Shown: in pieces, positions 6,491-37,547 of the stretch
Position numbering within the stretch: position 1 is the first letter of the stretch
How the letters are laid out: every line of letters begins with the position of its first letter
Source of the DNA: Bacteroidales bacterium
GTDB taxonomy: Bacteria; Bacteroidota; Bacteroidia; Bacteroidales; JAIORY01
Assembly (NCBI GenBank): GCA_021107915.1
Contig: JAIORY010000231.1
Span: forward strand, 1-37,549
Reading direction: 5' to 3'
Length of the DNA: 37,549 bases
Translations under genes and position numbers: made by a program
The notes under the pieces: generated by a model
Told to the model about the DNA's origin: nothing
Database searches by the model: none
What the model saw: only the letters and a program-made list of their open reading frames with translations

Positions 6491-6494
6491 TTTA

Positions 6495-7131: not shown

Positions 7132-7148
7132 ATTCACCAACTTTATAG

Positions 7149-16660: not shown

Positions 16661-16932
16661 AATAATTTTTTTTCAAATATAAATAATTAATAATTAAAAA
16701 GCAAATAATCAGTATAAAAATAATAATGAAAATATAGGAAAGAATGAAAATAAGGGGAATAATAGAAATATGGAAAAAGAATGGAAATATATAAAACTTA
16801 TACCTTTATACCCCTATTTCCCTATAACTACAGGGTGTCCGTCCAAACGAATTCCTTTCAGTCATATGAATACCATTTTAAAAATTTATTGAGGTTTTTG
16901 ATCTATTAGAAAATTATATTTTTTTTATAAAT

Positions 16933-17169: not shown

Positions 17170-17219
17170 TTTTATAAAAAAATTAGGTTTTGTGTGAAAT
17201 ATAGTGGGTAATCAAATTT

Positions 17220-17281
17220 GCCACAGATTCACAGATTATAAAATTAATTTTTTTGTAATTAATAATCTGTGAATCTGTGGC
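17220..17281. repeat. 20-bp perfect inverted repeat with 9-nt internal period
   Basis: gccacagattcacagattat (17220-17239) / ataatctgtgaatctgtggc (17262-17281). Confidence 0.9.
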
Positions 17282-17316
17282 TTTTTATTTTTTTCCCACA
17301 TCAAATCAAAAATAAT

Positions 17317-18885
<1,569 letters not shown>

Positions 18886-18982
18886 TTAAAATTTAAAATT
18901 TATAGAATTATTTGCGAAGTGTAGCTCTTTCTTGCGAAGCAGGAGAAATGTCTGAAAGGCAGAGGAGTAAATGAATAATCCT

Positions 18983-19579
18983 TTATTTTTTAAAAAAACT
19001 TCTTTGAAAAAAGATCAAAATAAAAACGCCGATAGTGATTGCAGAATCTGCAATATTAAAAACAGGGCGGAAGAAAATAAATCTTTCGGAACCCCAGAAC
19101 GGAAGCCAGTCAGGGAATGTTCCTTTTAATACAGGGAAATAGAACATATCAACAACTCTTCCGTGAAGAAAAGTTCCGTACCCTCCATCTTCGGGTATAA
19201 ATGATGCTACCTGATGGAAATTACTTTCGCTGAATAATAATCCGTAAAAAGCACTATCAATAATATTTCCCAAAGCTCCTGCAAAAATCAGGGATAGACT
19301 GATGATAAGCCCTGTACTATGCTTTTTCTGAGAAATTTTATAAATATAAATCCCGATTGCAATTACGGCGAGTATCCTGAAAATACTTAGAAAAAGTTTA
19401 CCGAATTCTCCGGCAAACTGAAACCCAAATGCCATTCCGTAATTTTCGGTGAAATGCAGAATAAACCAATCACCCATAACATGAGTTTCCTGTCCAAGAA
19501 ACATAGTAGTTTTTATCCAAAACTTTAATGTCTGGTCGAGGATTAAAACCAGAAGTATTATAATGGCAGATTTCTTCAA
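18983..19579 (-). CDS. lspA: Lipoprotein signal peptidase
   Basis: NYGMAFG, GALGNIID, VVDM, FNIAD catalytic motifs. Confidence 0.96.
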   Translation of the reverse strand: MKKSAIIILLVLILDQTLKFWIKTTMFLGQETHVMGDWFILHFTENYGMAFGFQFAGEFGKLFLSIFRILAVIAIGIYIYKISQKKHSTGLIISLSLIFAGALGNIIDSAFYGLLFSESNFHQVASFIPEDGGYGTFLHGRVVDMFYFPVLKGTFPDWLPFWGSERFIFFRPVFNIADSAITIGVFILIFFQRSFFKK

Positions 19580-19613
19580 AATTTATTACGATAAAAATTA
19601 ATGAAAAACGAAA

Positions 19614-20012
19614 TTAATCGTATTGTTTGTTTTTTGCAGCAATGCTCAAAGTAGCATGAGGTACACTTCTTAATCTTTCTTTTGAAATAAGATTTCCGGT
19701 AGCTCTGCAAACTCCATACGAACCGTTTTCGATTCTAATAAGAGCATTTTCGAGGTTTGTAATAAATTTTTGCTGACGGGCAGCTAATTTACTGTTTTCC
19801 TCTTTCGAGAGAACCTGATATCCTTCTTCCAAAACTTTAAAAGTTGGAGAGGTGTCATTGGTTCCATGCTCATTATTGTTGGTATAAGCATCTGTTAACA
19901 TTTTAAGATCGCGGCGTGCTTTTTCAAGTTTATTCAGGATGAGATCCTTAAATTCCTGTAACTCTTCAATAGAGTATTTTGTTTTTTTTATTCCCGTTTT
20001 AGTGTCTTTCAT
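19614..20012 (-). CDS. dksA: DksA/TraR family regulator
   Basis: ALIRIENGSYGVC..TG..I..ERL..VPHATL; between ileS and lspA. Confidence 0.88.
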   Translation of the reverse strand: MKDTKTGIKKTKYSIEELQEFKDLILNKLEKARRDLKMLTDAYTNNNEHGTNDTSPTFKVLEEGYQVLSKEENSKLAARQQKFITNLENALIRIENGSYGVCRATGNLISKERLRSVPHATLSIAAKNKQYD

Positions 20013-20052
20013 AACTCATTCTTTTAGTAAGAAACGAAATATTTGAGTAATA

Positions 20053-23000: not shown

Positions 23001-23421
23001 CCATATTTTTGGTAAGATCATCCCATTTATCCTTATATTTCATTACCTCTTTGCGGCAAGCTTTGTTATAATCTTCAACCGAAATATTTTTTCCAATATC
23101 TTCTTTGGTGATACCGAGAGTTTTTTCAGTTGCGATTTCAATTGGCAAACCGTGAGTATCCCAGCCGGCTTTACGTTTTACCTGAAATCCTTTCAGGGTT
23201 TTATATCTGCAAAATAAATCTTTTATTGTTCGGGAAATCACATGGTGAATGCCGGGCAAACCGTTTGCTGACGGAGGACCTTCATAAAAAACATAAGACT
23301 TATGACCTTCGCGAATAGCCATACTTTTTTCAAATATTTTATGATCTTCCCAATATTTTTCAATATCTTCTCCTATCCCTGCTAAGTTTAGCTTTTTGTA
23401 TTCCCGGTATTTTGCTTTCAT
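20053..23421 (-). CDS. ileS: Isoleucyl-tRNA synthetase (type 2)
   Basis: EGPPSANG.PGIHH, GWDTHGLP, WTTTPWTL, DQTRGWF, KMSKR. Confidence 0.99.
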   Translation of the reverse strand: MKAKYREYKKLNLAGIGEDIEKYWEDHKIFEKSMAIREGHKSYVFYEGPPSANGLPGIHHVISRTIKDLFCRYKTLKGFQVKRKAGWDTHGLPIEIATEKTLGITKEDIGKNISVEDYNKACRKEVMKYKDKWDDLTKNMGYWVDLDNPYITFDNKYIESVWYLLNKLNDKGLLYKGHTIQPYSPAAGTGLSSHELNLPGCYRDVKDSTLVAQFKVVKNEKSDFLFDDDNENVSFLAWTTTPWTLASNTALGVGKKINYIKVKTFNPYTSKPISVILGKELLGKYFPEKNAELKMDDFEAGQKNIPFEVAGEYVGKDLEGIRYEQLLPYAQPKDGDAFKVLIGDFVTTEEGTGIVHLAPSFGADDQRVAKQNGIGSLTLVNKQGKCTEEMGEFAGRYVKNEFDPNNDPKKKETLDIDIIVKLKQENKAFKTEKYIHSYPHCWRTDKPILYYPLDSWFIKTIAFKDRMIELNKTINWKPTSTGIGRFGNWLENLVDWNLSRSRFWGVGLPIWLTKNRKEQICLGSVTDLKKEIEKSVEKGFMKTNPLENFVPGNNSKENYETFDLHRPYIDEIILVSPSGEKMFRELDLIDVWFDSGAMPYAQMHYPFENKKEFENNFPADLIAEGVDQTRGWFFTMHAIAVMLFDSVSYKTCVSNGLVLDKDGNKMSKRLGNAADPFKIINQYGPDALRWYMMTNAQPWDNLKFDPAGIGEVQRKFFGTLYNIYAFFTLYANIDGFDYSEDDIPFEKRPELDRWILSELNTLVKNVDDYYDDYEPSKAGRAIQNFVDSYLSNWYVRLSRRRFWKGDYSDDKISAYQTLYKCLEVIAQLSSPIAPFFTDNLFIDLNKVTKKHNVKSIHLTDFPKAFYKQIDKDLEERMQLSQKISSMVLSLRKKTKNRVRQPLNKIMIPVLDENFKKQVQAVENLILSEVNVKEIEYISDASGILVKKIKPNFKTLGPKYGKLMKQISQAINTFNQEDISLIETNNKYELSLENEKIEITIDDVEIMTEDIPGWVVTNLDNLTVALDITITKELEEEGIAREIVNRIQNLRKDKGFEVTDKIALQIEKNNSVFDAINNNISYICSETLTDNLEFLDKIKTNEAVKIELNSDIQITININKTDK

Positions 23422-23452
23422 TAAATATGTTATGTATTTTAAAAATTGGGTG

Positions 23453-23460
23453 CAAAAGTA
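23453..23460 (-). promoter_or_regulatory. Bacteroidetes -7 promoter motif for ileS
   Basis: TACTTTTG on the minus strand, about 32 nt upstream of the start. Confidence 0.5.
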
Positions 23461-23582
23461 ATAAAAAATTGATGAAATGCCTGCTTGATTGGGAATTATG
23501 ATAAATTTTATTATTTTTGAAGAAAAAATAGATGAAATTCTTATGCTAAGTATTCAAGACAAAAGAGAATGAATATAAAAAG

Positions 23583-23900: not shown

Positions 23901-24077
23901 TTGACACAAATTACACGAATTATCACTAATTTATTTTCGTAAAAAATTATTGTACAACCTTAAATCCGCAAATAAAATAAATAAATAGCCGCGAATGCGC
24001 GAATAATAAAATATAACTTATTTTACTTAACCCAAATTAGTGAAGTAAAATTCGCTTAAATTTGCGATATTAGCGGC
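23901..24077. repeat. Degenerate 9-nt periodic repeat arms
   Basis: ttgacacaaattacacgaattatcactaatt; ccgcgaatgcgcgaat ... attcgcttaaatttgcgatattagcgg. Confidence 0.6.
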
Positions 24078-24130
24078 TAATAAAAAAACACTTGCACTAA
24101 ATTTTGTATTATTGGTAAACTAAGAAAAAT

Positions 24131-24843
24131 ATGGCTCAAAAGAAAGATATACCTGCCGAAGGTTTTTCGCAAATATTGCTTTACACCACACCCAATGGAA
24201 ATGTTAAAGTTGAAATATATTTGAAAAACGAAACGGTTTGGCTTACGCAACAAAAAATTGCCGATTTGTTTGGGGTTGACAGAAGTGTGGCGACCAAACA
24301 TTTAAAGAACATTTATGATGATAGTGAGCTTAGCAAAAAGTCAACATGTGCAATTTTTGCACAAGTTCAATTAGAGGGTATTCGGGAAGTTAAAAGGAAT
24401 ATAGAATTCTACAATTTAGATGCAATAATTTCTGTTGGTTACCGTGTAAACAGTCGGCAAGCTACACACTTTAGAATCTGGGCTACCGAAAGGCTGAAAG
24501 AATATATCATCAAAGGTTTTACCATGGATGATGAGCGGTTGAAAAACCCAAACAATATTTTTGGTAAAGATTATTTTGAAGAACAGCTTGCCCGAATACG
24601 CGATATACGCAGCAGCGAAAGGCGATTTTATCAGAAAATTACAGATATATACTCACAGTGTAGTGTCGACTACGATATAAACGACCAGATTACCAAAGAC
24701 TTTTTTGCTACGGTTCAAAACAAATTGCATTGGCAATTACCGGACAAACAGCAGCAGAAATAGAACTTGAAAAATACCGTATTATCCAAGACCGTATATT
24801 AGAATCGGATTTTGATAAAGAGATAAAAAAACTGCAAGGATGA
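24131..24843 (+). pseudogene. RhuM-family protein, frameshifted and internally deleted
   Basis: WLTQ..IA.LF, YNLDAIISVGYRVNS, RIRDIRSSERRFYQK; 1-nt loss at KLHW|AITGQTAAEI, which then runs directly into the C-terminal EKYRIIQDR..ESDFD. Confidence 0.85.
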
Positions 24844-24917
24844 AATAGGAGTACAATCTTGCCGGCGAGCAGTAAATAATAATAGATAAACCAATAATCA
24901 TTCAAATAGATTACATT

Positions 24918-25435
24918 ATGAATAATGCTAAACTAAAAATATTTCAAGAACAAAGTGTAAGAACACACTGGGACGATAAACAAGAAAAATGGTTTTTTTC
25001 TATTGTTGATGTTATTGGAATTTTAACCGGACAAATTAACCATCAAGGAGCAAGAAACTATTGGAAAGTATTAAAAAAGAGACTTTTGAAAGAAGGAAAT
25101 GAAACGGTTACAAATTGTAACCGTTTGAAAATGCTTGCAGCTGATGGCAAAATGCGAATGACTGATGTAGCAGATACAGAGCAGTTGTTACGGCTAATTC
25201 AATCTGTTCCATCGCCCAAAGCAGAGCCTTTTAAAAGATGGTTGGCAAAGCCTCAACAACAGAAATTGCCCGAAATAAAAATGCTCAGGGGTTTTTCGAA
25301 AACAAAAATGCTGCAAAACAAGGTGGAAGCGTAGCAGGCAAAGCAAGAAAAGACCTTGAGAAACGCAGCGGTAAAAAAGTAATCAGTAAACAAAATTATC
25401 ATCAGTTGGGCGAAGGTAACTATAAAGAAGAATAA
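24918..25435 (+). pseudogene. Bro-N domain protein, internally deleted with frameshift
   Basis: WFFSIVDV, YWKVLK.RL, QSVPSPKAEPFK.WLAK joined out of frame to ASTTEIA...AGKARKDLE C-terminus. Confidence 0.82.
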
Positions 25436-25502
25436 GCTATATTTGTTTTTTTTTGATATTTAACCATAAAATTTAAATTAACTTTGTAAATTAGCCAACT
25501 CA

Positions 25503-25648
25503 ATGTTGGAAATCAAAAACATATACAAATCATTTGGAGAACAAAAAGTTCTTCAGGGTTTAAATATGTCTATTGAGAAGGAAAAACTAATGCAATTTAT
25601 GTTGAGCGTGCAAAAGAAGTATTGAAATTTTATAAACCTGATAAATGA
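25503..25648 (+). pseudogene. Remnant of an ABC ATP-binding gene
   Basis: MLEIKNIYKSFGEQKVLQGLNMSIEK breaks off before Walker A; TAACTTTG promoter motif upstream. Confidence 0.65.
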
Positions 25649-25939
25649 TTTTGATATTGGAGAAATAAAAATAATGTAGTTCATACAACAATGTTAGTGT
25701 TCATTTTGTTCGAGAAAAGAAGCGCAGGTTTAACACATTTGGGGTTTACCGAAATACGCAAAACACGCAAAAAACCAAAAGGGATACCTTTTGCTGGCAC
25801 ACTAAAAATAAAATGCAAAGACTTGAAAACAAAAAAACATTACAAACGAATTATAAAAGCAAATAAATAAAGAAATGGTAGAGATATTTATTTTTAAATT
25901 AAAAATGACTTACTTTGCAAGTAATTAAGAAATTTATGT

Positions 25940-27361
25940 ATGGAAACAAAAATTAAAACAATAAAAAAGGCAACAATATACTTTAACTATTCATTCATGC
26001 CTAGCTCTAATGACTTCACGTTAAAAGATGATGACATTGAAAAGCTTTACAAAGCATTAGAAAATGAAGATAAACTAAAGGATAGAATTAATGACAAATA
26101 TAATTTTGGCAAACCAAAGGAGAGAATAGGCATATCTTCTTTTAATTCATTGGAGCACAAAAATATTGGTTACCTTCAATTACCGGAAATGTTAGTTAAA
26201 ATTGATTCAATTAATTTAACAATTGAACCATTGTTTCGTTTTTTTCCTAATGGAAGTACCTTGACATTCAAAGTTGAAACCCAGGATAGTGAAATTGATC
26301 AATATATAATCCATAAGGTATTACATATGGTAAGCCAGGAAAGAAACGAAAAAGCAGATGTTACTTTTGTTTTTTCCAAAGAGATAGATAAAGCAAGCAA
26401 ACATTTTTACAAAGACTTTTTTAATATTGATACTAAAGAAGAAGAAAAGGAAATAGTAGTCTATCACAAAGAGAAAGAATTAGATATTAATTATACTCCG
26501 GAAATAAAATTATCACATGACTTCTTTACTGAAGAAAACCAAAATATCACCCTATTTCAATTGTTCAAAGGACTTGTAGAAAAATATATTCTAGTGGCAA
26601 GTAAAGAAGAGAAACTAAATGAAAAAGAGAAAAAGGATAAAAAAGATGTATTATTCAAATTGAAATGCAAGGAATACCTTAATACTAATGAGGAGGAGCC
26701 AAGAACTCCATGGGTAATTACTGTTTTAGATGTAGATGATGAATTAAATGAAATCCTTTGTTCCGGGGGTTCTAATAACGAGAGAACTAATGCCATATTA
26801 GAAAAGTCAAAGCTGATAGCTCCAATTCTATATCGTTCAGTTTCGGGTTCAGACTTTGAGCTAGAGCCATCCTATCCTTTTTTACCTAAAAGATTAAATT
26901 TCTTCAATCTTAATCTGGATTCAAGGCTTTATGTCGACATCTCAAGAAGATCAATTCTTTGTATAAAAACCAATGAACAAAAATATCCTGCGTATTATTT
27001 TATCCCGGTATTGTTAGATATTTCTGAAATGACATTCTCAAGATGGCAATCCCTATTAATTATTAATAAAATTATTGATGAGGCATTAAAAAATTTTACT
27101 GAAAAATCGCTTTCTGCTGGAGATCGTGTTAAAAAAATCATGAATCTTTTAAATAAATTTTCAGCATGTATTGAGGATACTTCAAACTATTTTATTGGTG
27201 GAGATGCTCTTCGAGAAATACATGATAAACTTATAGATAACTTTAAAGTGAATGACTTAATGAATATTACTTTAAGAAAAATAGATATGCTTGAAAGAAC
27301 CTATAAATATCAACTTGAACAAGCCTGGACTGAGCCTTATAAAGTAAGAAATAATGAGTGA
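25940..27361 (+). CDS. Hypothetical protein, first gene of the TIR operon
   Basis: 473-aa ORF; 8-bp overlap with the TIR gene; no recognised motif. Confidence 0.75.
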   Translation: METKIKTIKKATIYFNYSFMPSSNDFTLKDDDIEKLYKALENEDKLKDRINDKYNFGKPKERIGISSFNSLEHKNIGYLQLPEMLVKIDSINLTIEPLFRFFPNGSTLTFKVETQDSEIDQYIIHKVLHMVSQERNEKADVTFVFSKEIDKASKHFYKDFFNIDTKEEEKEIVVYHKEKELDINYTPEIKLSHDFFTEENQNITLFQLFKGLVEKYILVASKEEKLNEKEKKDKKDVLFKLKCKEYLNTNEEEPRTPWVITVLDVDDELNEILCSGGSNNERTNAILEKSKLIAPILYRSVSGSDFELEPSYPFLPKRLNFFNLNLDSRLYVDISRRSILCIKTNEQKYPAYYFIPVLLDISEMTFSRWQSLLIINKIIDEALKNFTEKSLSAGDRVKKIMNLLNKFSACIEDTSNYFIGGDALREIHDKLIDNFKVNDLMNITLRKIDMLERTYKYQLEQAWTEPYKVRNNE

Positions 27362-28883
27362 TAGGAAACATTATAGTGAAGAAAGTGATAGGCTGACGAA
27401 AGTATTAGATTCCCGAGCTAGAAAAATTAGAAGATCAGAAAGTTTAATAGTTCTAAGTGAAGAATTTCCTGAGACTAAAAATATTATAGAAAAGATTCTC
27501 GAATACTATTTCTTTGAGTCTAATATGTTTGAAGAATTAGCGACTTCCATTACTTATCTCAAATTAAATAATGAAATCGATAGCCAAAAATTTAAATTTT
27601 GGATACACATAATTGATATTGCAGATGAAATTAGTTGGGAAACAAAACAATCATTTGGTGAATTAATTTATAAGACTTTTGATATAGGAGAAGAGTTTTT
27701 TAATAGACTTAATCGAAATCTTGTCGAAATAGAAAAGGCTCATAATAAGTTTTTTGAAAATATCAAAAAGAACAAGCAGTTATTACCGAAGGATACTAAA
27801 ACATTATTAGATAAATTTCTTGTTAAAAATAACATTTTGGACAATAATGTGAAAGTTGAAAGTGAATCAGTAAAAAATGATAGCATTGAATTGGAAACAA
27901 AAATCAACAATTCGAATAAAAATGTAAATGAAAAAGGCCCTATAAAAGCTTTTATCAGCTATGCCCATGAAGACGAAGATTTTAGAATAAATCTTAGAAA
28001 ACATTTAAAGAGTCTTGAACGCAGAAATCTGATCGAAGTATGGGATGATCGTGAAATTGTTGCTTCAGATGAGTGGAGAGAGGAAATTAAAAAAGCTTTA
28101 AGAAATTGCCAACTTGCTTTGTTATTGATTAGTATTGATTTCATCAATTCCGATTTCATCAATGATCAAGAATTAAATGAATTTTTAAGAAAACGAAAAG
28201 ATGAGGGACTAAAGATTGTTCCGATTATTATTCGTGAGTGTGATTGGAAGGAGGAGATATTTGCTAACCTTCAAGCTACTCCAAAAGACGGAGAATCAAT
28301 TAGTTCATATCAGAATAGAGATTTAGCATGGGTAGAAGTTGTGAATGAAATAAAGAGGGTACTTAAAAATATTTCAGAAACCACATCATCGATTGAAAAT
28401 ACATTAAATGATTCATTTAGTAAAACTAATATAGAGCATAATAAAAGTGTAATTCCTATGGAAACAGAAAAAGCACATACGAAAGCAAATTTGCAGGCAA
28501 TTGAAGTTAGATTATTAGCATCTTTCAATACGATAAAAGTTTTAGATGCAAAATTTAGAAGAAAAGAAATAACACCTGAATTCTATTTTGATAAAAGAAA
28601 AGCATATGTTGAAGATAACTTTTCTGATTTCAATGAAATTATAAAAATATTGAAAGAAACAGGAGCTTCAGATTTTGCAGATGTTTTTGAGAGAACTATT
28701 AATTTAGATACAACTAATAAAGAACAAGAAGTTGCTATAAAGGAGGAATTAATACTTGAAACAGAAAAGGCTGAGGACAAAGGATGGATAAAAAACTTAA
28801 AAGAAAAAGTGAGTCAACATAAAGGTGATATAATTGATGTTGCAATAAAAACAGCTATTGCAATTGGAACAGCATTGCTATAA
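27354..28883 (+). CDS. Multi-domain TIR protein
   Basis: AFISYAHED, VWDD.EI...EW..EI, LIS.DFINSDFI...EL (catalytic Glu position), VPIIIR.CDW. Confidence 0.9.
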   Translation: MSDRKHYSEESDRLTKVLDSRARKIRRSESLIVLSEEFPETKNIIEKILEYYFFESNMFEELATSITYLKLNNEIDSQKFKFWIHIIDIADEISWETKQSFGELIYKTFDIGEEFFNRLNRNLVEIEKAHNKFFENIKKNKQLLPKDTKTLLDKFLVKNNILDNNVKVESESVKNDSIELETKINNSNKNVNEKGPIKAFISYAHEDEDFRINLRKHLKSLERRNLIEVWDDREIVASDEWREEIKKALRNCQLALLLISIDFINSDFINDQELNEFLRKRKDEGLKIVPIIIRECDWKEEIFANLQATPKDGESISSYQNRDLAWVEVVNEIKRVLKNISETTSSIENTLNDSFSKTNIEHNKSVIPMETEKAHTKANLQAIEVRLLASFNTIKVLDAKFRRKEITPEFYFDKRKAYVEDNFSDFNEIIKILKETGASDFADVFERTINLDTTNKEQEVAIKEELILETEKAEDKGWIKNLKEKVSQHKGDIIDVAIKTAIAIGTALL

Positions 28884-28902
28884 ACATTTAAAAATATTTA
28901 TC

Positions 28903-29901
28903 ATGAAAACAAGATTATTAATTTTCGCTATCATACCAGTTCTCTTTGTATTAATTGGTTGTAATAGCAACAAAACGAAAAATACGGAAAAAGAAATTCA
29001 GGTTACTTGGGGTGGTCCTAAAAACATTTCAATGTTACCAATTATAGCAGAAAAAAAGGGATTTTTTAAAGAGGAAGGCTTGAACATTGAAACTAAGTAT
29101 TTACAAACCGGCAAAATTGCAATGGATGCACTTTTAAGTAAAGACCTTGATTTTGCGGTAATGGTAGAAACAAATGTTGCCTTTATAGAATACCAGAAAG
29201 GAGCAGATATAGAAGTTATTTGTTCTATTGAGGAAAAATATGATGATGCTATTGTTGCAAGGAAAGATAAAGGCATTAATGAACCTAAAGACTTGGAAGG
29301 TAAAACCGTTGGGATTTTAATCGGGACAACATCTCATGTTTTTGCTGATAGATTTGTAAATTATTACAATCTTGATGCAAGTAAAATCAACTTTATAAAC
29401 TTAGCTCCTCCAGCCATCCAGGCGGGATTATTAACAGGGCAAATAGATGCAGGAAGTGTTTGGCAACCATTCAGGTATAATGTTGAAAAACAACTTGGTG
29501 AAGATGTTATTCAATTCAATGCTAAGGATATTTACAAGGCGTATGGGATAATATCCATCAGGAATCAATTTGGGGAAGAACATCCTGAAACTGTTAAAAA
29601 ATTCCTGGCAGCCTTAATCAAAGCTGAAAACTATGTAAAAACCAATCAAGCTAAATCAATCAAAATTCTAGCGAAAGAATTAGCTATGCAGGAAGAAGTA
29701 TTAAGCGCAATTTGGAGTGAATACATATTGAATGTTAAGCTAGATGCGGAATTATTGACATTAATTAAAGAAGAGGGCGAGTGGATCCATAGCAGCCAAA
29801 AAGGTTTTGAAAATAAACAAGTTCCTTCATACGAAAATGTGCTGAATCCAACTTTTCTTTCAGAACTTAAAAAAGAGAACGCAGAGGAACTCTCAAAATA
29901 A
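28903..29901 (+). CDS. ABC substrate-binding lipoprotein (SsuA/TauA/NMT1-THI5 class)
   Basis: LIGC lipobox; IAEKKGFFKEEGL, DLEGKTVG...GTTS, G.IDA..VWQP. Confidence 0.9.
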   Translation: MKTRLLIFAIIPVLFVLIGCNSNKTKNTEKEIQVTWGGPKNISMLPIIAEKKGFFKEEGLNIETKYLQTGKIAMDALLSKDLDFAVMVETNVAFIEYQKGADIEVICSIEEKYDDAIVARKDKGINEPKDLEGKTVGILIGTTSHVFADRFVNYYNLDASKINFINLAPPAIQAGLLTGQIDAGSVWQPFRYNVEKQLGEDVIQFNAKDIYKAYGIISIRNQFGEEHPETVKKFLAALIKAENYVKTNQAKSIKILAKELAMQEEVLSAIWSEYILNVKLDAELLTLIKEEGEWIHSSQKGFENKQVPSYENVLNPTFLSELKKENAEELSK

Positions 29902-29913
29902 TTATCAATTTGA

Positions 29914-30660
29914 ATGAAGAAACTCCTTTTTGTAATAGGGCCAATTGCATTATTAATTCTTTGGTGGATATTAACGAAGTTTGGATTCGCCAATTCTTTT
30001 TTACTTCCGTCACCTGAAGATACTTTTTCAAGATTATTTGGATTATTTTCGTCAGGAGAGGTGTTTAATGATATAAGGTTAACTTTTTATCGGTGGTCAA
30101 TTGGATATCTTTTAGGCTGTGTTGTTGGCATTCCTTTAGGTATTTTAATGGGTTATTCTGAAAAAGTATATAAAAGTTGTGAATTTCTGATTGAATTTTT
30201 CAGGTCCCTACCTGTTACAGCCATGTTCCCTCTATTTTTACTAATGTTTGGAATTGGAGACAGCTCAAAAATTGCCATGACTTTTACAGCAACAGTCTTT
30301 ATTATAATAATAAATAGTGCTTATGGAGTAACACAAACAAAAAAGTCTCGAATTAAAGCTGCCAAAACATTCGGAGCTACAAATTTTCAGATTTTCACTA
30401 ATGTTGTGTTTTATGAATCCCTGCCTCATACCTTGATTGGAATGAGAACAACACTAAGCCTTTCATTGATTGTTGTAATTGTAAGCGAAATGTTTATTGG
30501 TACACAGTTTGGACTTGGGCAACGAATTTATGATGCCTACACCAGAAATTCTGTTGATGAGCTTTATGCTGTGATAGTATTATTGGGAATAATCGGCTAT
30601 TTTTCGAATAAGTTATTTATGTACATGGAAACTAAAATTGCATTTTGGACAGGAAAGTAG
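29914..30660 (+). CDS. ABC permease (SsuC/TauC class)
   Basis: LLPSP, GIPLGILMG, PLFLLMFGIG, AAKTFGA EAA-like loop, six TM. Confidence 0.93.
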   Translation: MKKLLFVIGPIALLILWWILTKFGFANSFLLPSPEDTFSRLFGLFSSGEVFNDIRLTFYRWSIGYLLGCVVGIPLGILMGYSEKVYKSCEFLIEFFRSLPVTAMFPLFLLMFGIGDSSKIAMTFTATVFIIIINSAYGVTQTKKSRIKAAKTFGATNFQIFTNVVFYESLPHTLIGMRTTLSLSLIVVIVSEMFIGTQFGLGQRIYDAYTRNSVDELYAVIVLLGIIGYFSNKLFMYMETKIAFWTGK

Positions 30661-31415
30661 TACATATAAAAGTAGATAAAATATCAAAATCATTTAAAAA
30701 TGATGAAGGTAGAATAGAAGTGCTTAAACATGTAAGCCTGGAAATTTATAAGGGTGAATTTTTAACATTCTTTGGTCCGAATGGCTGTGGAAAGTCGACA
30801 TTAGTAAACATTCTTGCAGGAATTGAAGAGGCTGGAGATGGAGAAATAACCTTTCCGGAAACCAACGGGAAACCGAAAATTGGGTTTGTCTTTCAAAACT
30901 ACCGGGATAGTTTAATGCCCTGGCTAAATGTTGAAAAAAATATCTGTTTCCCATTAAAATTAAAGGGAATAACTAAGAGTGAGCAAAAGGAAAGGTTGAA
31001 AACATTAATATCAGAATTTGAAATTAATATTGACCTGAAATCTAAGGTTTATAATTTATCAGGAGGTCAGGCTCAAATGGTTTCAATCTTACGCGGCTTA
31101 ATTGTTAATCCTGAAATATTGATCATGGATGAACCTTTTTCTGCTCTTGACTATCAGACAAATTTAATGTTGTATGAAGAATTATTAAAAATTTGGAGAA
31201 AGCTTAAGATTACAGTCATTTTAATTTCTCATGAAATTGACGAAGCTATATATCTCGGTGACAGAGTTGCTTTTTTAAGTAAAAAACCCGCTTCAATATT
31301 TAAAGTTTTGAATTCTGATTTACCAAGACCAAGGAAATTGGAAGATATGGGATCGCAAGAGTTTGCTGAATTAAAGAAAAAAGCATTAGAAATATTCAGA
31401 AATACAGCGACGTAA
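30645..31415 (+). CDS. ABC ATP-binding protein (SsuB/TauB class)
   Basis: GPNGCGKST, LSGGQ, MDEPFSALD, SHEIDEAIYLGDRV, LPRPR. Confidence 0.95.
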   Translation: MDRKVVHIKVDKISKSFKNDEGRIEVLKHVSLEIYKGEFLTFFGPNGCGKSTLVNILAGIEEAGDGEITFPETNGKPKIGFVFQNYRDSLMPWLNVEKNICFPLKLKGITKSEQKERLKTLISEFEINIDLKSKVYNLSGGQAQMVSILRGLIVNPEILIMDEPFSALDYQTNLMLYEELLKIWRKLKITVILISHEIDEAIYLGDRVAFLSKKPASIFKVLNSDLPRPRKLEDMGSQEFAELKKKALEIFRNTAT

Positions 31416-31424
31416 TTAAATTTA

Positions 31425-32318
31425 TTATTTAGTTAGATTGGTGTATGAAACAATTTCCATTATAAGATTATTAATCCAATCAACACAATTGTCATTATCT
31501 TTTGATGGTATATAGTTAGCAATGCTAATTCCTGCAATTTCAAAATCTTCTAATAACTGGAGAGTGATATCTGATATCTCTTGTTTTAACAATCCATTAG
31601 AATGTGGAGCATAAACCGGAGGATCTTCCGAAGAGTCAATAACATCCAAATCATAGTGAATGAAAATTGATTTTATCCTATTTTGAATTAACTTTTTTGA
31701 TAATTCAGAAATCTTCTGATCTACATTTTCCTTTAAATTATCACCAGAGTATAATATTATCTTTTGTTTGTCTATAAGTTTTTTCTCTCCTTCATCAAGG
31801 TTTCGCTGCCCTAACATTATAACATTGGATGGTTTAATAAATTCCCTCATTTTATTCAATTCCAGAATTTCCGGGTGACCAAATCCAAGTATATGGGCTA
31901 ATCCCATTCCGTAAAAACAACCACTTGGACTGGTTTCAGGTGTATTAATATCAGCATGAGTATCAAACCAAATTATTCCAACATCATGATTATTAGCTAA
32001 TACGCCATATACAGTACCAATTGTTGATGAATCATCGCCCATTAACACCAATGGAATATTACCAGATTTTACTGTAGTTTGTACTTCTTCCTGTATTACT
32101 CTATTTAATTGTAATATCTCAGGTAAATTCTTAGAATTTGCATATTCACCCTGTGAATGCTCTGGTTTTGGTACTGGTATTTCTATTCTAATAACATTAT
32201 TACTAATACCTTCACCCACCTTTTTTAGTACCGATGATAAAACAACCGGTCCTTTTTCCATTCCACAATTAATATCGGGAGCACCGAGACTGCTTGAAAC
32301 TTCAATTATTTGAAACAT
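31425..32318 (-). CDS. Arginase/ureohydrolase family protein with atypical active site
   Basis: GMEKGP, WFDTHADINTPETSPSG, HYDLDVID; GDDS instead of GDHS. Confidence 0.87.
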   Translation of the reverse strand: MFQIIEVSSSLGAPDINCGMEKGPVVLSSVLKKVGEGISNNVIRIEIPVPKPEHSQGEYANSKNLPEILQLNRVIQEEVQTTVKSGNIPLVLMGDDSSTIGTVYGVLANNHDVGIIWFDTHADINTPETSPSGCFYGMGLAHILGFGHPEILELNKMREFIKPSNVIMLGQRNLDEGEKKLIDKQKIILYSGDNLKENVDQKISELSKKLIQNRIKSIFIHYDLDVIDSSEDPPVYAPHSNGLLKQEISDITLQLLEDFEIAGISIANYIPSKDNDNCVDWINNLIMEIVSYTNLTK

Positions 32319-32321
32319 ATC

Positions 32322-33446
32322 TTAATGAGGTTTATAAATTGGTTCTCTTTTTGGTAGTTCTTTTATTCTCTCTACTGACAAAACAATTTCGCCAACAGTT
32401 CTTTTAAATATTGGAGTAGAAAATATCCAATTCTCAATATTTATTAATTTATCAACATCCCATCCTCGCTCTGATACCTTTTGTAAAAATACTCTTTTGT
32501 AAGCTTGAAAAATCGTACTATTGTTTAAATAAAACTGAACGGCTTCTTCTTTCGTATCAACTATATGCACAAATGGCAAACTACTTTTAACAACTTCTAC
32601 ATAAGACTGAAGACAAAATCTTTTTAAAAAATCATCGTCCGGTTTTTCTGGTATTCCAACAACTTTAAATGTATCAAAGTCGCATAAAAATAAATCCAGA
32701 TTGCCTTGTTCATCAATATTAATAACATCATTACCAATATTACTGTTAAGCAATCCCCTGAAACCTCCATTAAAATTCATATTTACTAATAGCAAAGCTT
32801 TAGTATAGGTATAAAATGAATTATTAATTCCTGTTAAATTCACTTCCCTTCCCAAGCCATGTCTTAAATCGAATAAATCCGATTTTACCTTTAAATTTAG
32901 CAGACTATCTATTGTTTGATTTTCATATTCAAATCTTGATTCAATTCTTGTTTCTGATACTGTTTTTTCAACAATGCAATATCCTTCTCCAATCGGAAAT
33001 ACAGCAACAGGAATGAGATTAGTTTGTAAATTGTACTTCTTGAAAAAACCATAACCCAGTATTTCTCTAATTACCTGATCTATGGTAAGAATACCATATG
33101 GTATCGTAGTTACTTTAACATTCTCCTCACCAAAAAACATACTCTCGCTTGGGAATTTTCTTTTTTCATGATATGGATTACACCCTTTTAATTTTAGCAT
33201 TTTATCAGATATAAAAGCTGATCTTTCGCCATGTCTATAAGCATATTGAACACCCTTTTCCGACTTTAACCACTTGGCTCTTGATAAAGGAACCTTAAAA
33301 TCATCAATCGAATTTTTGTATAGTTTGTTATCTGAAAGAATTTTTATTTCCCGATTTGATAATTGAACATTATTAATATGCTTACTAACAAAATCGGTAA
33401 TTGAATAAATATTACTTTCAAACTCATATAGCTTTATCTTTTCCAT
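32322..33446 (-). CDS. Hypothetical protein with SelO/YdiU-like atypical kinase-fold motifs
   Basis: G.RSA...KLKG, G......IRE, N...GN...DFD order parallels SelO GRA..LKG/RE/NTDN/DYG; tightly coupled in operon. Confidence 0.6.
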   Translation of the reverse strand: MEKIKLYEFESNIYSITDFVSKHINNVQLSNREIKILSDNKLYKNSIDDFKVPLSRAKWLKSEKGVQYAYRHGERSAFISDKMLKLKGCNPYHEKRKFPSESMFFGEENVKVTTIPYGILTIDQVIREILGYGFFKKYNLQTNLIPVAVFPIGEGYCIVEKTVSETRIESRFEYENQTIDSLLNLKVKSDLFDLRHGLGREVNLTGINNSFYTYTKALLLVNMNFNGGFRGLLNSNIGNDVINIDEQGNLDLFLCDFDTFKVVGIPEKPDDDFLKRFCLQSYVEVVKSSLPFVHIVDTKEEAVQFYLNNSTIFQAYKRVFLQKVSERGWDVDKLINIENWIFSTPIFKRTVGEIVLSVERIKELPKREPIYKPH

Positions 33447-33448
33447 AT

Positions 33449-35263
33449 CTATCGCAGGTGTTCAGAAACTGTCTGAAAACTTAAATTCATTCTGGATAAA
33501 AGTTCCAGGTCATGCTCGTTTTTTCTGGCAATCAAATAATTATTCATGACCAAAAAGTCAATTTTTCCTTTGCCAGATGAAAGGAAATTTTCAAGTGCAT
33601 GTTGTGGACTGTGAACAATAGGTTGTCTGATATTAAAAGATGTATTTACTAATATTGGAATTTTGGTTAATTTATGAAACTCTTTAATGAGATTATAAAA
33701 TGGTTTGTTCGAATCTTCTGAAACGACCTGCACTCTACCAGTATTATCATAATGCGTTACTGCCGGGATTTCCCCAATCTTTTCCGGTTTTATTTTATAA
33801 GAAAAAAGCATCCATTTATCAGATTCGGCACCACCTTTAGGTCTGATAAACCAATTATCCACCTCACTTTCCAAAACAGAAGGAGCTAATGGTCTAAACC
33901 ATTTACGTCCTTTAATATCCTGGCTTAATCTCTTTAATATATCACTTCGTCTGGGATCAGATAGAATACTTCTATTACCTAAAGCTCTTGGGCCAAATTC
34001 CATTCTACCCTGATACCAGGCTATTATTGCTCCTTTTGTTAACAGATCAGCGGTTATTGTGTCAATGTTTTCAATCTGAATAAACTGTATTTCATCACAA
34101 TTTGCCAGATACTCACTAATTTGATTATTATCAAATTGCGAACCCAGATATGGTGTAAATAGTTGATGATTAGTATTGCCAACAATATGTTTATCTACAT
34201 AAAGAGCAGCTCCTAATGCAGTTCCCATATCATTAGCTGCTGGTTGAATAAAAATATTTTTAAACTTACTATTTTCGAGAATGTATGTATTGGTAGTACA
34301 ATTAAGAGTAACTCCTCCCGCCATACATAAATTATCTGATCCAGTTAAATCGTGTAGCTTATTTGCCCAAATCAATACTATTTCGTTTGTTAATTTTTGC
34401 ATTGCTGCGGCAAAATCCATGTGATCCTGAGAAAACTCTTCATTTTCTTTTCTTGCTTTAAACCCAAATAATTTTTCATATTCTTCATGTGTTTCATATC
34501 TGAATTGAAATATCTCATCATTAATTTGGAAGTCACCTTCATTGTTGTAGTAAACAAATGACCGAAATTCTTTATAATAATTATCTGGATTTCCATAAGA
34601 TGCAAGAGCCATTAACTTTCCAGCTCCATATTCGCCCATTCCATTTATCAGTGCACTAAGAAATCTAGATGCTTTAGTCCATAGAAAACCAAGCGAATTG
34701 GGATAACCACCTTTTTCTTCAAATATTTGTAATAACCCCTTCCCTCCTTTTGCAAACATTCTGCTATAGTATTCTCCAATTCCATCAATGGTTAAAACAG
34801 CAGAATCCTCAAATGGTGAAACAAAATATGCACTTGCAGCATGACAAACATGATGAGGTATCCAATGCCATTTATTTCTTAAATCAACTCCATATTTACT
34901 TTCTAATATTTCTGGTATTGAGTTAACTAATTTATAATATTTGCTTTCTCCGGAAAGGCTCCCCCAATCTCCTTCAATAACATTACCATTTTGATCAATG
35001 TTTCTGATAAGTCTTTGAATAGGATCAAATGAAAATCCAATGTGATTAATTTCTTTAAAAGTAATATTAGCAAACTTCAAACATTCATTAATTGCTAGAA
35101 ATGGTAATTGATGTGGATTGGTAATTAAAGCTGATTTTCCATGCCTAACCCTGTTTAGTCTTTCTTCTTCAATTGCAAATAATACTTCACCATTTTTTAA
35201 TAAACAGGCTGCCGGTTCATGATAAACAGAATTAATTCCTAATATAAAAGTATCTTTACTCAT
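33449..35263 (-). CDS. O-carbamoyltransferase (CmcH/NodU/TobZ family)
   Basis: EEERLNR, HHVCHAAS, DGIGE, GKLMALA, AGGVTLNC, EFGPRALGNRS, NTSFN. Confidence 0.96.
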   Translation of the reverse strand: MSKDTFILGINSVYHEPAACLLKNGEVLFAIEEERLNRVRHGKSALITNPHQLPFLAINECLKFANITFKEINHIGFSFDPIQRLIRNIDQNGNVIEGDWGSLSGESKYYKLVNSIPEILESKYGVDLRNKWHWIPHHVCHAASAYFVSPFEDSAVLTIDGIGEYYSRMFAKGGKGLLQIFEEKGGYPNSLGFLWTKASRFLSALINGMGEYGAGKLMALASYGNPDNYYKEFRSFVYYNNEGDFQINDEIFQFRYETHEEYEKLFGFKARKENEEFSQDHMDFAAAMQKLTNEIVLIWANKLHDLTGSDNLCMAGGVTLNCTTNTYILENSKFKNIFIQPAANDMGTALGAALYVDKHIVGNTNHQLFTPYLGSQFDNNQISEYLANCDEIQFIQIENIDTITADLLTKGAIIAWYQGRMEFGPRALGNRSILSDPRRSDILKRLSQDIKGRKWFRPLAPSVLESEVDNWFIRPKGGAESDKWMLFSYKIKPEKIGEIPAVTHYDNTGRVQVVSEDSNKPFYNLIKEFHKLTKIPILVNTSFNIRQPIVHSPQHALENFLSSGKGKIDFLVMNNYLIARKNEHDLELLSRMNLSFQTVSEHLR

Positions 35264-35304
35264 TCAATTATTAAGTTAAAACATTAAAATTAAAAATTAG
35301 GAGA

Positions 35305-35312
35305 CAAAAATA
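35305..35312 (-). promoter_or_regulatory. Bacteroidetes -7 promoter motif for the carbamoyltransferase operon
   Basis: TATTTTTG on the minus strand, about 42 nt upstream of the start. Confidence 0.4.
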
Positions 35313-35422
35313 ATAAAGTAATGTAGAATTATACTACATTTTTGAAATTAATTGAGCTATACTCACACAGCTAACCACCTTTCTAATCCCCCAAAAACCA
35401 AACCCCAACAAAGTTTTTTCCA

Positions 35423-35608
35423 TCAAATCATCTTCCCAATCCTCGAATTTACCAGTATTCCGCTTAAAATTCCAATAGAGGTTTCGTATCCGAAGACTTT
35501 TAGTTTTTCGGAAATCTTTGTTTTTCTTTTGCACCGAGGTTTGATTTGATAATTTTCGTAGCATAGTTATTTATACATAAAGAATTATTGTAAATTTGTA
35601 GTATAAAA
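35423..35608. repeat. Repeat copy A: decayed 3' end of the 37167-end gene plus promoter
   Basis: Colinear with 36123-36308 (700-nt offset); first 128 nt match 37167-37298; TAAATTTG at 35591-35598. Confidence 0.92.
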
Positions 35609-35618
35609 AGTTATCATT

Positions 35619-35939
35619 ATGAAACATTTAGAAATAAAACAAAACGAACAAAATTATCCTGATTTATTTGAAAAAGACAATACCGAGCCTTTTTTAGTTG
35701 AAAATAGCAAAGGCAATCATTTTTTAGTTTTACCATTGCAACAAATGAATTGGCAGGAAATATTTTTTCAGTTATATCAATTACCTTCAAATTTGTTTTT
35801 ACATAAAAAAGAAGTGAAAACAAATTATGATAATATTGAGAATTTATGTGGTTCTATGGAAGGGTTGTTATCATCAAGTAATAGTTTTGCGCAAAACAAA
35901 CAAAATGAAATTGATTTGGAAAATAAAAAGTGGAAGTAA
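35619..35939 (+). CDS. Putative antitoxin
   Basis: 106 aa; TAATG coupling to a PIN remnant; LCG..SS..F...K..E..LE tail. Confidence 0.6.
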   Translation: MKHLEIKQNEQNYPDLFEKDNTEPFLVENSKGNHFLVLPLQQMNWQEIFFQLYQLPSNLFLHKKEVKTNYDNIENLCGSMEGLLSSSNSFAQNKQNEIDLENKKWK

Positions 35940-36004
35940 TGAAAACATATATTCTTGATGCTGTTGAAAAAAACTCAAAACTTAAATTTTATTGGTTGCG
36001 ATGA
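35939..36004 (+). pseudogene. PIN/VapC toxin remnant (N- and C-termini fused)
   Basis: MKTYILDA|VEKNSKLKFYWLR*: PIN first strand (ILD) joined to a PIN-like C-terminus. Confidence 0.65.
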
Positions 36005-36122
36005 AACCATTGCTTTAAAAGAAACAAAAAATTGATACTGATTATGAAGTTCAGTTTTTTTATTGTTGGCAACCATTTTTTAGAAATACAGAGTAAAAGA
36101 AAAAGATAGGAAAACTTATCTT

Positions 36123-36308
36123 TCAAATCATCTTCCCAATCCTCGAATTACCCAGTATCCCGCTTAAAATTCCAATAGAAGTTTCGTATCAAAAGACTTT
36201 TAATTTTTCGGCAATCTTTGTTTTTCTTTTGCGCCGAGGCTTGATTTGATAATTTTCGTAGCATAATTTTTAATACGTAAATAATTATTGTAAATTTGTA
36301 GTATAAAA
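36123..36308. repeat. Repeat copy B
   Basis: See copy A; TAAATTTG at 36291-36298. Confidence 0.92.
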
Positions 36309-36316
36309 TAGAAATA

Positions 36317-36640
36317 GTGAAAACAAATATTAAAATTCTAAAAAAACTAAAGAAATCTCTTATTAACAAGTTTGGAGAAAACATAAAAGAAGTGATTTTA
36401 TTTGGTTCCCATGTAACAGGCAAGGCTCACGAAAATTCCGATTATGATGTATTGGTTATATTAAACAATGATTATAACTGGAAATATAAGAGAGAAATCT
36501 TACACGTTTGTTATGATATTGAATTAGAACACGATATTTTTATTGATATTAAAATTATTTCTATTAATGAGTTAAATCATTCTATTAAAGGGCAGCATCC
36601 TTTATACGAAGAAGCTTTAAATAAAGGAATACTAATATGA
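36317..36640 (+). CDS. Minimal nucleotidyltransferase (MNT) antitoxin
   Basis: ILFGS...G.....SDYDVLVI motif; 107 aa; GTG start. Confidence 0.9.
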   Translation: MKTNIKILKKLKKSLINKFGENIKEVILFGSHVTGKAHENSDYDVLVILNNDYNWKYKREILHVCYDIELEHDIFIDIKIISINELNHSIKGQHPLYEEALNKGILI

Positions 36641-36833
36641 CATTAAATGATGAGAACAGGCAAAGTTTGATAAAAAATATAATCAGATTTTGAGAGATGC
36701 TTTTACTGTCCGTTCAGAGGCAGATTATGGAGAATTTGTTGAATTTACTGAAGATCAAGTACTCGAAATGTTTGAAGAAATGAAAGACTTTATAAATGTT
36801 GTTAAGCCATTAATACTATCCAAAGAATATTAA
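36637..36833 (+). pseudogene. HEPN domain remnant, internally deleted
   Basis: ATGA overlap with MNT; MTLNDENRQSLIK joined out of frame to DKKY..IL.DAF..R..ADY..F..FT......MFEEMK.FI. Confidence 0.8.
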
Positions 36834-36963
36834 TATTAATTTTCGGTTATACCGATACGGAATAGAATTGTAAATTTTTATAAAGTTTATCCTTACGGCA
36901 TAACTACTTCTAATAGAATACATGAAGTTTTCGGGATAATGTTTTTAATAGGAATCAGGATTT

Positions 36964-36989
36964 TAAACCTATCGAATTCGATAGGTTTA
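36964..36989. repeat. 26-bp perfect palindrome
   Basis: taaacctatcgaattcgataggttta. Confidence 0.85.
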
Positions 36990-37042
36990 GAAATAAAGTC
37001 GGGAGTAATTATTTTGTATTATCTAATGATTTATGGAAAAAA

Positions 37043-37130
37043 TTTATCATCGAATTGAACGAATTATACGAATTTTCAATTCGTTCAATTAGTGTAATTC
37101 GATGACAAAAATTATAATTTGATGACAAAA
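37043..37130. repeat. 9-10-nt periodic inverted-arm element
   Basis: tcatcgaattgaacgaattatacgaatt / aattcgttcaattagtgtaattcgatga. Confidence 0.7.
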
Positions 37131-37166
37131 CAAGGATATTTGTCATACACCCAATCTGCCTGTTTT

Positions 37167-37547
37167 TCAAATCATCTTCGCAATCCTCGAATTTCCCAAT
37201 ATTCCGCTTAAAATTCCAATAGAAGTTTCGTATCCGAAGACTTTTAGTTTTTCGGCGATTTTGGTTTGTTTTTCTTTGGAGCTTAGGCTTGATTTGATGA
37301 TTTTTTTAAGTTCTTTATATTGAGAGCCTTTTAGTTCGTCTTGTAATATTTCGTTAATGATGTTGATGATTTCTATTGAACTTGCATCATCTGTTTTTCC
37401 CGGAATACCGAAAATTTCAATTTCTGCTATTGCTGCTTCGAGAATTTCGCGGGCAAGTTTTTTTGAGGCGTCAATAATGGAGGATGAGCCTGATGTATCT
37501 CGTAATGACCAACTGCTATAATCAGATTCAATTTTTTCGATCTGAAT
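37167..37547 (-). CDS. 3' part of an unidentified gene running off the window
   Basis: Open 127-codon frame IQIEKIESD...KLKVFGYETSIGILSGILGNSRIAKMI*; not in the ORF track because no start is in the window. Confidence 0.75.
   Translation of the reverse strand: MQIEKIESDYSSWSLRDTSGSSSIIDASKKLAREILEAAIAEIEIFGIPGKTDDASSIEIINIINEILQDELKGSQYKELKKIIKSSLSSKEKQTKIAEKLKVFGYETSIGILSGILGNSRIAKMI

Follow-up and report, generated by a model that had tools for sequence, protein, structure and literature searches.

Several described systems share components with the locus reported here. Thoeris defense systems pair ThsB, which contains a TIR domain, with an adjacent ThsA of the SIR2/SLOG or Macro/TM type; NitT/TauT-type ATP-binding cassette (ABC) importers, such as SsuABC, TauABC and ThiXYZ, consist of a lipoprotein binding protein, a permease and an ATPase; and TobZ, GdmN and NovN are carbamoyltransferases with a Kae1-like N-terminal and a YrdC-like C-terminal domain. 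Here, we analyzed a 37,549-nucleotide (nt) stretch of DNA (contig JAIORY010000231.1 of a Bacteroidales bacterium, hereafter the window), in which a ThsB-like TIR domain, a NitT/TauT-type importer and a TobZ-type carbamoyltransferase are encoded in two gene strings that meet tail to tail (Table 1). By comparison of gene order across seven independent loci, the TIR-containing protein (protein B), its neighbor (protein A) and the importer are one conserved five-gene unit, hereafter the cassette. A literature search of titles and the openings of abstracts turned up no such cassette; the initial annotation of the window likewise named no known system that combines these parts.

Conservation of proteins A and B with an ABC importer

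The region from 25940 to 35263 contains eight intact open reading frames (ORFs) forming two convergent strings, five on the plus strand and three on the minus strand, with 9 nt between the final stop codons (31415 and 31425, respectively). This arrangement had been noted in the initial annotation and was confirmed ORF by ORF: all neighboring genes within the strings overlap or are at most 19 nt apart. The genes of A and B overlap by 8 nt, the binding-protein gene begins 19 nt after B if its start is the ATG at 28903 (the listed TTG start gives a 26-nt overlap with B instead), the gap between binding protein and permease is 12 nt, and the permease and ATPase genes overlap by 16 nt. The internal gaps of the minus-strand string are 3 and 2 nt. 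A scan for consensus promoters and terminators gave numbers not above those of shuffled sequences (47 versus 55.7 sites and 4 versus 4.4). From spacing and conserved order only, we infer that the plus-strand string is co-transcribed. Just upstream of A, a 40-residue ORF (25503-25625) resembles by eye the N-terminal start of an ABC ATPase and may be a gene remnant.

Protein A was found at seven independent loci in at least three phyla: the window, L005, L006, L007, L009 (whose DNA is identical to that of L008), L015 and L016. Three of these came from species genomes (three of 30 pattern matches were confirmed), one came from a metagenome, in which it was recovered twice (two of 499 confirmed), and L015 and L016 came from 401 sampled genomes belonging to the same phylum as the window, of which three, the window's own included, had a match. 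The cassette is therefore sporadic within that phylum. Metagenome-assembled genomes (MAGs) of Prolixibacteraceae, Nitrospirae (L006) and Cloacimonadales are among the carriers.

At all seven loci A adjoins an NMT1-type ABC importer with binding protein, permease and ATPase, as assigned by Pfam for L005, L006, L007 and L009 and by BLAST against the window's proteins for L015 and L016. The gene 3' of A likewise overlaps A or begins no more than 16 nt past its stop codon at every locus. In six loci the order is A, B, binding protein and then permease and ATPase in either order, and in L015 the importer genes come first. No binding protein more than 28% identical to that of the window was found in the 401 genomes, and therefore this sample holds no close paralog of this importer that lacks A. 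The initial annotation had passed over A, the 473-residue constant partner, in its description of the unit. It had placed the TIR gene with the transporter, and this was borne out, as the non-TIR parts of B have relatives beside the same importer type elsewhere.

The rates of change within the cassette differ considerably. The binding protein, permease and ATPase of the window are 83, 89 and 85% identical to those of L005, whereas A is 57% and the C-terminus of B 71% identical, and the N-terminus of B has no detectable similarity between the two loci. By these comparisons, change in A and B has been much faster than in the importer.

Protein A had zero matches to Pfam, NCBIfam or PADLOC families. 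A word-indexed search identified seven relatives, and a profile search of 1.84 billion representatives identified 207 clusters at E<=1e-3 (58 at <=1e-30); 69 of 71 scanned family members had no Pfam family. Profile searches of PDB with A found nothing, as did a Foldseek search with its AlphaFold2 model at E<=1e-3. The best VIA-align match of that model had a Z score of 5.7, with START/Bet v1-like and CorA/MRS2-like rows weak at Z ~4, and in the ESM Atlas A fell among unnamed clusters, the nearest named one being CorA at 0.87, below the threshold for a lead.

Protein B is modular. Its TIR part matched TIR_2 at residues 200-307 of 509 (2.4e-15; 57.5 bits versus a cut-off of 28) and the PADLOC ThsB model (ThsB1|ThsB) at residues 200-344 (1.4e-36), and Glu273, within a QEL motif, is at what we take, by analogy with other TIR domains, to be the catalytic Glu position. 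A PADLOC check, which had been proposed for the window, thus matched ThsB on the TIR part only, with A and the rest of B in the same operon unmatched. The parts on either side of the TIR domain have relatives of their own. Residues 331-509, which end in a hydrophobic tail, share 71% identity with the C-terminal part of the 410-residue B-position protein of L005, which has no Pfam domain and no TIR. Residues 7-174 are 31% identical (2e-16) to a 201-residue protein at the same position in L006 (B1), and a small hidden Markov model of this N-terminal domain also matched the B-position protein of L009 (1.3e-4, in a tiny database). When the whole of B was searched against 5.8 billion proteins, the matches were the L005 protein and 17 proteins matching the TIR part only, with no second fusion of TIR and B. 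Domain comparison thus indicates that the TIR domain is a lineage-specific insertion in B. In the window's genome (G000), further TIR_2 matches lie on contigs C1 (3868-4227) and C102 (125-788), and none near the window's TIR gene.

The B position is occupied by different proteins at different loci, and only the window has a TIR domain there (one of seven). In L015 it is a 489-residue protein whose last ~60 residues match the PADLOC model 'Effector, PN-superfamily' (1.1e-7) and PDC-M60C (8.1e-10). In L006, L007 and L016 two proteins occupy it, a soluble one and then a small one for which a hydropathy scan predicts membrane segments, and in L005 and L009 there is no recognizable domain. The small membrane partner in L006 (P0013, 5579-6136) has YGKN where its first hydrophobic segment ends, a motif not kept in P0015. 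We regard it as reminiscent of the YGMN of CorA and as at most a lead, beside the weak CorA-like hints for A.

The importer itself has the complete content of a NitT/TauT-type system in one operon: an NMT1/SsuA-class binding protein with an export signal, a BPD_transp_1 permease and an ABC ATPase. The ATG at 28903, most likely the start of the binding protein as judged from the sequence that follows, precedes a lipoprotein-type signal ending in LIGC with a Cys lipobox, which argues for a true importer with an outward-facing receptor. The closest solved chain to the binding protein is the taurine-binding TauA (6.3e-15), and the ligands of its nearest solved relatives are taurine, sulfonates, nitrate and a thiamine pyrimidine. 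Substrate-specific NCBIfam models all scored below their curated cut-offs, including SsuA_fam (140.8 versus 163.5 bits), TauA (76.2 versus 304.25), SaoX (53.9 versus 300), SaoP (161.9 versus 295) and SaoA (221.1 versus 360). The Sao transporter names reportedly originate in a selenoprotein preprint. Between loci with different enzyme sets the binding proteins are only 23-49% identical.

Enzyme partners of the cassette

The three enzyme genes of the minus strand (the trio) were found at two of the seven loci. In the window the trio is convergent with the cassette, and in L006, a contig of the Nitrospirae MAG, it lies just upstream of the cassette, with all genes in a single string pointing the same way and separated by 8-51 nt, in the order carbamoyltransferase, homolog of the 374-residue protein, Amidohydro_3 hydrolase, A, two B genes and importer. 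The L006 carbamoyltransferase, which is cut by the contig end, is 48% identical to that of the window across 299 residues and the homolog of the 374-residue protein 36%, while the Amidohydro_3 amidohydrolase replaces the arginase-family gene. Co-occurrence of the two operons elsewhere, the check proposed in the initial annotation, was thus observed. The five other loci lack the trio and carry other neighboring enzymes or none. From its distribution among the loci, the trio is a real but optional partner of the cassette.

A B12-binding radical S-adenosylmethionine (SAM) enzyme directly follows the importer ATPase in L007 (15285-16727) and L009 (14838-16454), and the two copies are 53% identical to each other; by the same comparison it is a second recurrent enzyme partner. 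The neighbors in L015 are a pyridoxal phosphate (PLP) enzyme and an O-methyltransferase, and that in L016 is a small methyltransferase. L005 has no neighboring enzymes, though its importer is 83-89% identical to that of the window. A query with the 374-residue protein found no match anywhere in the genomes holding L005 and L007, for which completeness is not given.

The carbamoyltransferase has both domains of its class, with scores well above the cut-offs (Carbam_trans_N 178.1 bits, Carbam_trans_C 202.9 bits), and its closest solved relatives are the natural-product O-carbamoyltransferases GdmN (1.9e-78), NovN (9.4e-73) and TobZ (3.4e-55). It contains an HxxxH motif, which presumably binds metal. 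The arginase-family protein (PF00491, 110.9 bits versus a cut-off of 22) is closest to the arginase of Bacillus caldovelox (1cev, 1.2e-39) and fell short of the RocF equivalog (140.7 versus 227.6 bits). It retains the DxHxD and DxD metal motifs. When aligned to 1cev, GGDHS has become MGDDS (His to Asp) and SGNIHGM has become SGCFYGM (Asn and His to Cys and Tyr). Given the arginine-site roles of these altered residues and the RocF score below the cut-off, its substrate is probably other than L-arginine. It is therefore probably a metallohydrolase and not an L-arginase.

The 374-residue protein had no Pfam, NCBIfam or PADLOC match, and no match to any Pfam kinase family. Its AlphaFold2 model (predicted local distance difference test, pLDDT, of 91.9) was aligned by VIA-align with SbnC (Z 12.4, 258 residues aligned, root-mean-square deviation 3.8), WaaP (11.5), AcsD (11.2), methylthioribose (MTR) kinase and SelO (both 10.6), Bud32 (10.5) and Rio1 (10.1), and Foldseek agreed weakly. 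The model thus supports a protein-kinase-like fold, and the 'kinase-like' label first given to this protein fits its prediction (Z 10-12.4). K87, E128 and D256-F257-D258 show little or no variation within the family. In a weak hhalign alignment (probability 1.3%), Asn236 appears to stand in place of the HxD-loop Asp. On the basis of this fold and the conserved Lys, Glu and DFD, the protein is predicted to be an ATP-using enzyme, perhaps a kinase or an adenylating ligase, or an enzyme of another type. Its 56 detected homologs include records from DPANN archaea and candidate phyla radiation (CPR) bacteria. A KEOPS-like pairing of this protein with the Kae1-like domain of the carbamoyltransferase was considered and reduced to a lead, as VIA-align does not single out Bud32; a prediction of the complex scored 0.00 and was counted neither for nor against it.

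The island and its surroundings

All eight genes lie within a strain-variable island. In a same-genus genome (G002, contig C151), the isoleucyl-tRNA synthetase (IleRS) flank, which extends to window position 23940, is only 87 nt from the flank that begins at 37163. A contig of run X5, from a separate cold-seep study, joins 23940 straight to 37163, skipping 13222 nt; the shorter side of the junction has 52 letters. These two junctions therefore delimit an island of 13.2 kb. In a second same-genus genome (G001), the only matches to the window are the two flanks. The base composition of the island is not unusual. Contigs from two other studies, 89-95% identical to the window, cover both operons; the 89% one spans the convergent junction (30582-31689) and the 95% one includes the TIR part of B. 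As these belong to the same island lineage, they are not independent evidence of linkage.

A direct repeat of 193 nt occurs in three copies toward the right end, the third beginning at the island edge, with zero copies between the two operons. These copies suggest that one site has received insertions repeatedly. The initial annotation had described a neighborhood of decayed toxin-antitoxin (TA) and RhuM/Bro genes, and truncated RhuM and Bro-N pieces were indeed identified at the left end. The 'decayed TA' label is plausible for a lone NTP_transf_2 gene of 107 residues, which is followed only by a 47-residue ORF.

Several side observations concern the island edges. A dispersed repeat of ~140 nt at the left edge (23957-24095) recurs, at 84-93% identity, in at least 11 more copies on other contigs of this genome (C4, C6, C36, C39, C85, C88, C91, C109, C175, C181 and C336) and looks like a miniature inverted-repeat transposable element (MITE). 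Contig C14 (1-3871) of the same assembly is 100% identical to the IleRS stretch at 19600-23470 and stops ~470 nt before the left edge; this overlap may be assembly redundancy or a population variant branching near the island. In one X5 contig, 37073 is followed by 23974, the shorter side of this junction having 34 letters, and this could be an excised circle of the island or a repeat artifact; the junction lies in repeats and was not counted.

The L015 cassette, from a genome of the same class, sits between a type III restriction enzyme (16500-19139, PADLOC 2e-299) and a large serine recombinase (5709-7310). Clearly mobile or defense-like settings were thus seen for two of the seven cassette copies, those of L015 and the window. 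Between the restriction enzyme and the binding protein, L015 also encodes a 325-residue protein with no family match.

Table 1. Positions of the features of the window (numbered from its first letter)
Feature	Position	Strand	Description or evidence
Protein A	25940-27361	+	473 aa, family without previous description; constant partner of the importer
Protein B	27354-28883	+	509 aa; helical N-terminal domain ~1-190, ThsB-like TIR insert 200-344, C-terminal domain
TIR insert of protein B	27951-28385	+	Residues 200-344
Substrate-binding protein, lipoprotein, NMT1/SsuA class	28903-29901 (listed TTG ORF 28858-29901)	+	NMT1 3.9e-29
ABC importer permease	29914-30660	+	BPD_transp_1 9.8e-19
ABC importer ATPase	30645-31415	+	ABC_tran 6.5e-29
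Arginase-family metallohydrolase (probable)	31425-32318	-	Arginase (PF00491) 1e-31
374-aa protein, predicted protein-kinase-like fold	32322-33446	-	Family without previous description; AlphaFold2 model and structure matches
TobZ/GdmN/NovN-type carbamoyltransferase	33449-35263	-	Carbam_trans_N 4.4e-52, Carbam_trans_C 3.5e-60
Strain-variable island with all eight genes	23940-37162		13.2 kb; comparison with same-genus genomes and a contig of another study
193-nt direct repeat, copy 1	35416-35608	+	
193-nt direct repeat, copy 2	36116-36308	+	91%
193-nt direct repeat, copy 3	37160-37352	+	65%; begins at island right edge
Truncated RhuM piece	24131-24763	+	210 aa; covers profile positions 1-130 of 252; island left end
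Bro-N piece	24918-25334	+	138 aa; island left end

Possible functions and comparison with known systems

The reading we favor, tentatively and as having somewhat less than an even chance, is that a mobile island carries an importer-centered cassette, to which cargo enzymes are optional additions, and that this cassette acts as an uptake-coupled effector module. A small polar compound would be bound by the lipoprotein on the outside of the cell and taken in by the importer. Where present, the trio would modify the imported compound by ATP-dependent activation or phosphorylation, O-carbamoylation via carbamoyl-AMP, and hydrolysis. A and B would relay the state of the transporter, or of its cargo, to an effector that B holds at the membrane; in the window's lineage this effector would be the ThsB-like TIR domain, cleaving nicotinamide adenine dinucleotide (NAD+) or making a signal derived from it. 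This reading is based on the way in which TIR, PN nucleosidase and small membrane proteins replace one another at the B position, as among abortive-infection effectors, on the faster evolution of A and B than of the importer and the sporadic occurrence of the cassette, and on the mobile or defense-like settings of two of its copies. It also draws on the constant presence of A with the importer and of a tightly packed gene after A, together with the lack of a close A-less paralog in the sample, and on the linkage of the trio in L006. We read the cassette as better suited to a conflict or signal-response role than to plain nutrition.

A number of results weigh against an uptake-coupled effector module. 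To our knowledge, no described defense system includes a binding-protein-dependent importer, and our searches found none. No relative of A was found in phage, plasmid or viral collections and none of the 374-residue family in viral contigs, no PADLOC model matched A or the non-TIR parts of B, and the fold of A is poorly defined (pLDDT 57 for a model from an 8-row alignment). Just two of the seven B-position proteins have an enzyme domain, and in L015 the PN match is limited to ~60 residues and Pfam PNP_UDP_1 scores 20.4 bits against a cut-off of 25.1. In addition, the flanks at L005, L007, L009 and L016 are mostly housekeeping genes, and TIR and PN domains both cleave N-glycosidic bonds, so that a metabolic role would fit them equally well.

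The last two points are shared with a purely metabolic uptake-and-processing operon, which we consider rather unlikely. Such an operon would import an N-riboside, sulfonate, pyrimidine or guanidino compound, on which TIR or PN would act as an N-glycosidase, with the neighboring enzymes salvaging the cargo or breaking it down and A and B as accessory or regulatory parts of the transporter. The canonical importer with its lipoprotein receptor and the ligands of its solved relatives are what would be expected, the arginase-family hydrolase and its Amidohydro_3 counterpart resemble alternative steps in catabolism, and the strong divergence of the binding proteins between loci with different enzyme sets is also in its favor. 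However, carbamoyltransferases of the GdmN/NovN/TobZ type build products and do not degrade them, B12-radical SAM enzymes and methyltransferases are tailoring enzymes, and L005 retains a near-identical importer without any enzymes. Neither the much faster evolution of A and B nor a sporadic cassette, with the window's copy in a variable island, speaks for nutrition. A further alternative is a make-and-retrieve system comparable to those for metallophores or opines, in which the trio would build a secreted small molecule and the importer would retrieve it or its loaded form. In its favor, the top structural matches of the 374-residue protein, and those with the longest aligned stretches, include the NRPS-independent siderophore (NIS) synthetases SbnC and AcsD, the carbamoyltransferase is closest to natural-product enzymes, and the trio adjoins the importer in two phyla. 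We nevertheless regard it as improbable, since neither the window nor L006 has an exporter or further biosynthetic genes, kinases and Bud32/RIO are within ~2 Z units of the top matches so that a ligase is not singled out, L005 has the same importer without the trio, and NMT1-type binding proteins are not known as the usual siderophore receptors.

Two further explanations would take the locus apart or assign it to a known system. A chance juxtaposition of an ordinary importer with a two-gene TIR defense pair (A and B) and an enzyme operon unrelated to either would be in line with the patchwork of repeats and gene remnants that makes up the island, and with the two operons being convergent and not co-transcribed with each other. 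Synteny largely refutes it, as A accompanies the importer at every locus, TIR-less homologs of B occupy the same position, and the L006 trio is contiguous and co-directional with the cassette; we give it little credence. Still harder to credit is a Thoeris variant in which B would be ThsB and A a new ThsA-like effector sensing a TIR-made signal. The ThsB match of B and the overlap of the A and B genes are as it would predict, but A is conserved beside TIR-less B proteins in six of the seven loci and has no SIR2, SLOG or Macro match, and the only SIR2_2 gene of the genome is on another contig (C170, 2315-2698).

Of the overall interpretation first offered for the window, the TIR/transporter link and the operon linkage have held, and the kinase-like label fits the predicted fold. 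Its view of TIR as a defining part has not, with one TIR domain among seven B-position proteins and no other TIR-B fusion among the 5.8 billion proteins, nor has that of the trio as integral, as it is present at two of seven loci and missing in L005 despite an 83%-identical binding protein; A had been overlooked. Neither defense nor signaling nor a carbamoylated product is demonstrated by what was found.

A bolder form of the uptake-coupled effector module, which we consider unlikely, is that the importer acts as the sensor in a new class of conflict system. Uptake of a specific outside molecule, potentially a danger signal, a kin signal or a competitor's product, would be reported by A to the swappable, membrane-tethered effector B, which would be a TIR NADase in the window and a PN nucleosidase or a small membrane protein at other loci, and the attached enzymes would convert or neutralize the imported molecule. 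PNPase-superfamily domains have been listed in conflict systems (PMC7159879), and 'ABC transporter' occurs 0 times in that article. Whatever its role, the cassette makes two families without a Pfam or PADLOC model, A (~200 clusters) and B, the fixed companions of one ABC-importer branch in distant bacteria, and B a carrier of domains, TIR and PN nucleosidase, whose other known setting is abortive-infection immunity. Coupling of uptake to these effectors, if it exists, would connect effectors of the bacterial immune type with the sensing of an outside small molecule by a transporter, a link not found in print. If the role is metabolic, TIR domains would be ordinary N-glycosidases in nutrient processing.

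Comparison with the known systems shows both likenesses and differences. Thoeris was rejected as an assignment: the TIR part of B matches ThsB and keeps Glu273, but there is no adjacent ThsA, and the TIR domain has been inserted into a larger protein that has TIR-less relatives and whose neighbors and constant partners are A and an ABC importer. CBASS (cyclic oligonucleotide-based antiphage signaling system) and other swappable-effector systems are similar in that TIR, PN nucleosidase and membrane proteins alternate at one position of the cassette, although the cassette has no cyclase, nucleotide sensor or other signal-making enzyme and has an importer in that place. The carbamoyltransferase shares both Pfam domains with TobZ, GdmN and NovN and has strong solved relatives among them, whereas it is part of a three-gene set and not of a large biosynthetic cluster; its NodU equivalog score is 146.9 bits against a cut-off of 1000. 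With SsuABC, TauABC and ThiXYZ the importer shares its three parts, their domains and the lipoprotein binding protein, but it is below every equivalog cut-off and always accompanied by A and B, which are absent from those systems. A further comparison, for manner of working only, is with PstSCAB-PhoU and other 'trigger transporters', in which an importer operon includes an extra cytoplasmic or membrane-associated protein that could report the state of the transporter to an output. Neither A nor B was found to be related to PhoU in sequence or fold, no search aimed at this having been made, and in place of a kinase the cassette would have a TIR, PN or membrane module as its output.

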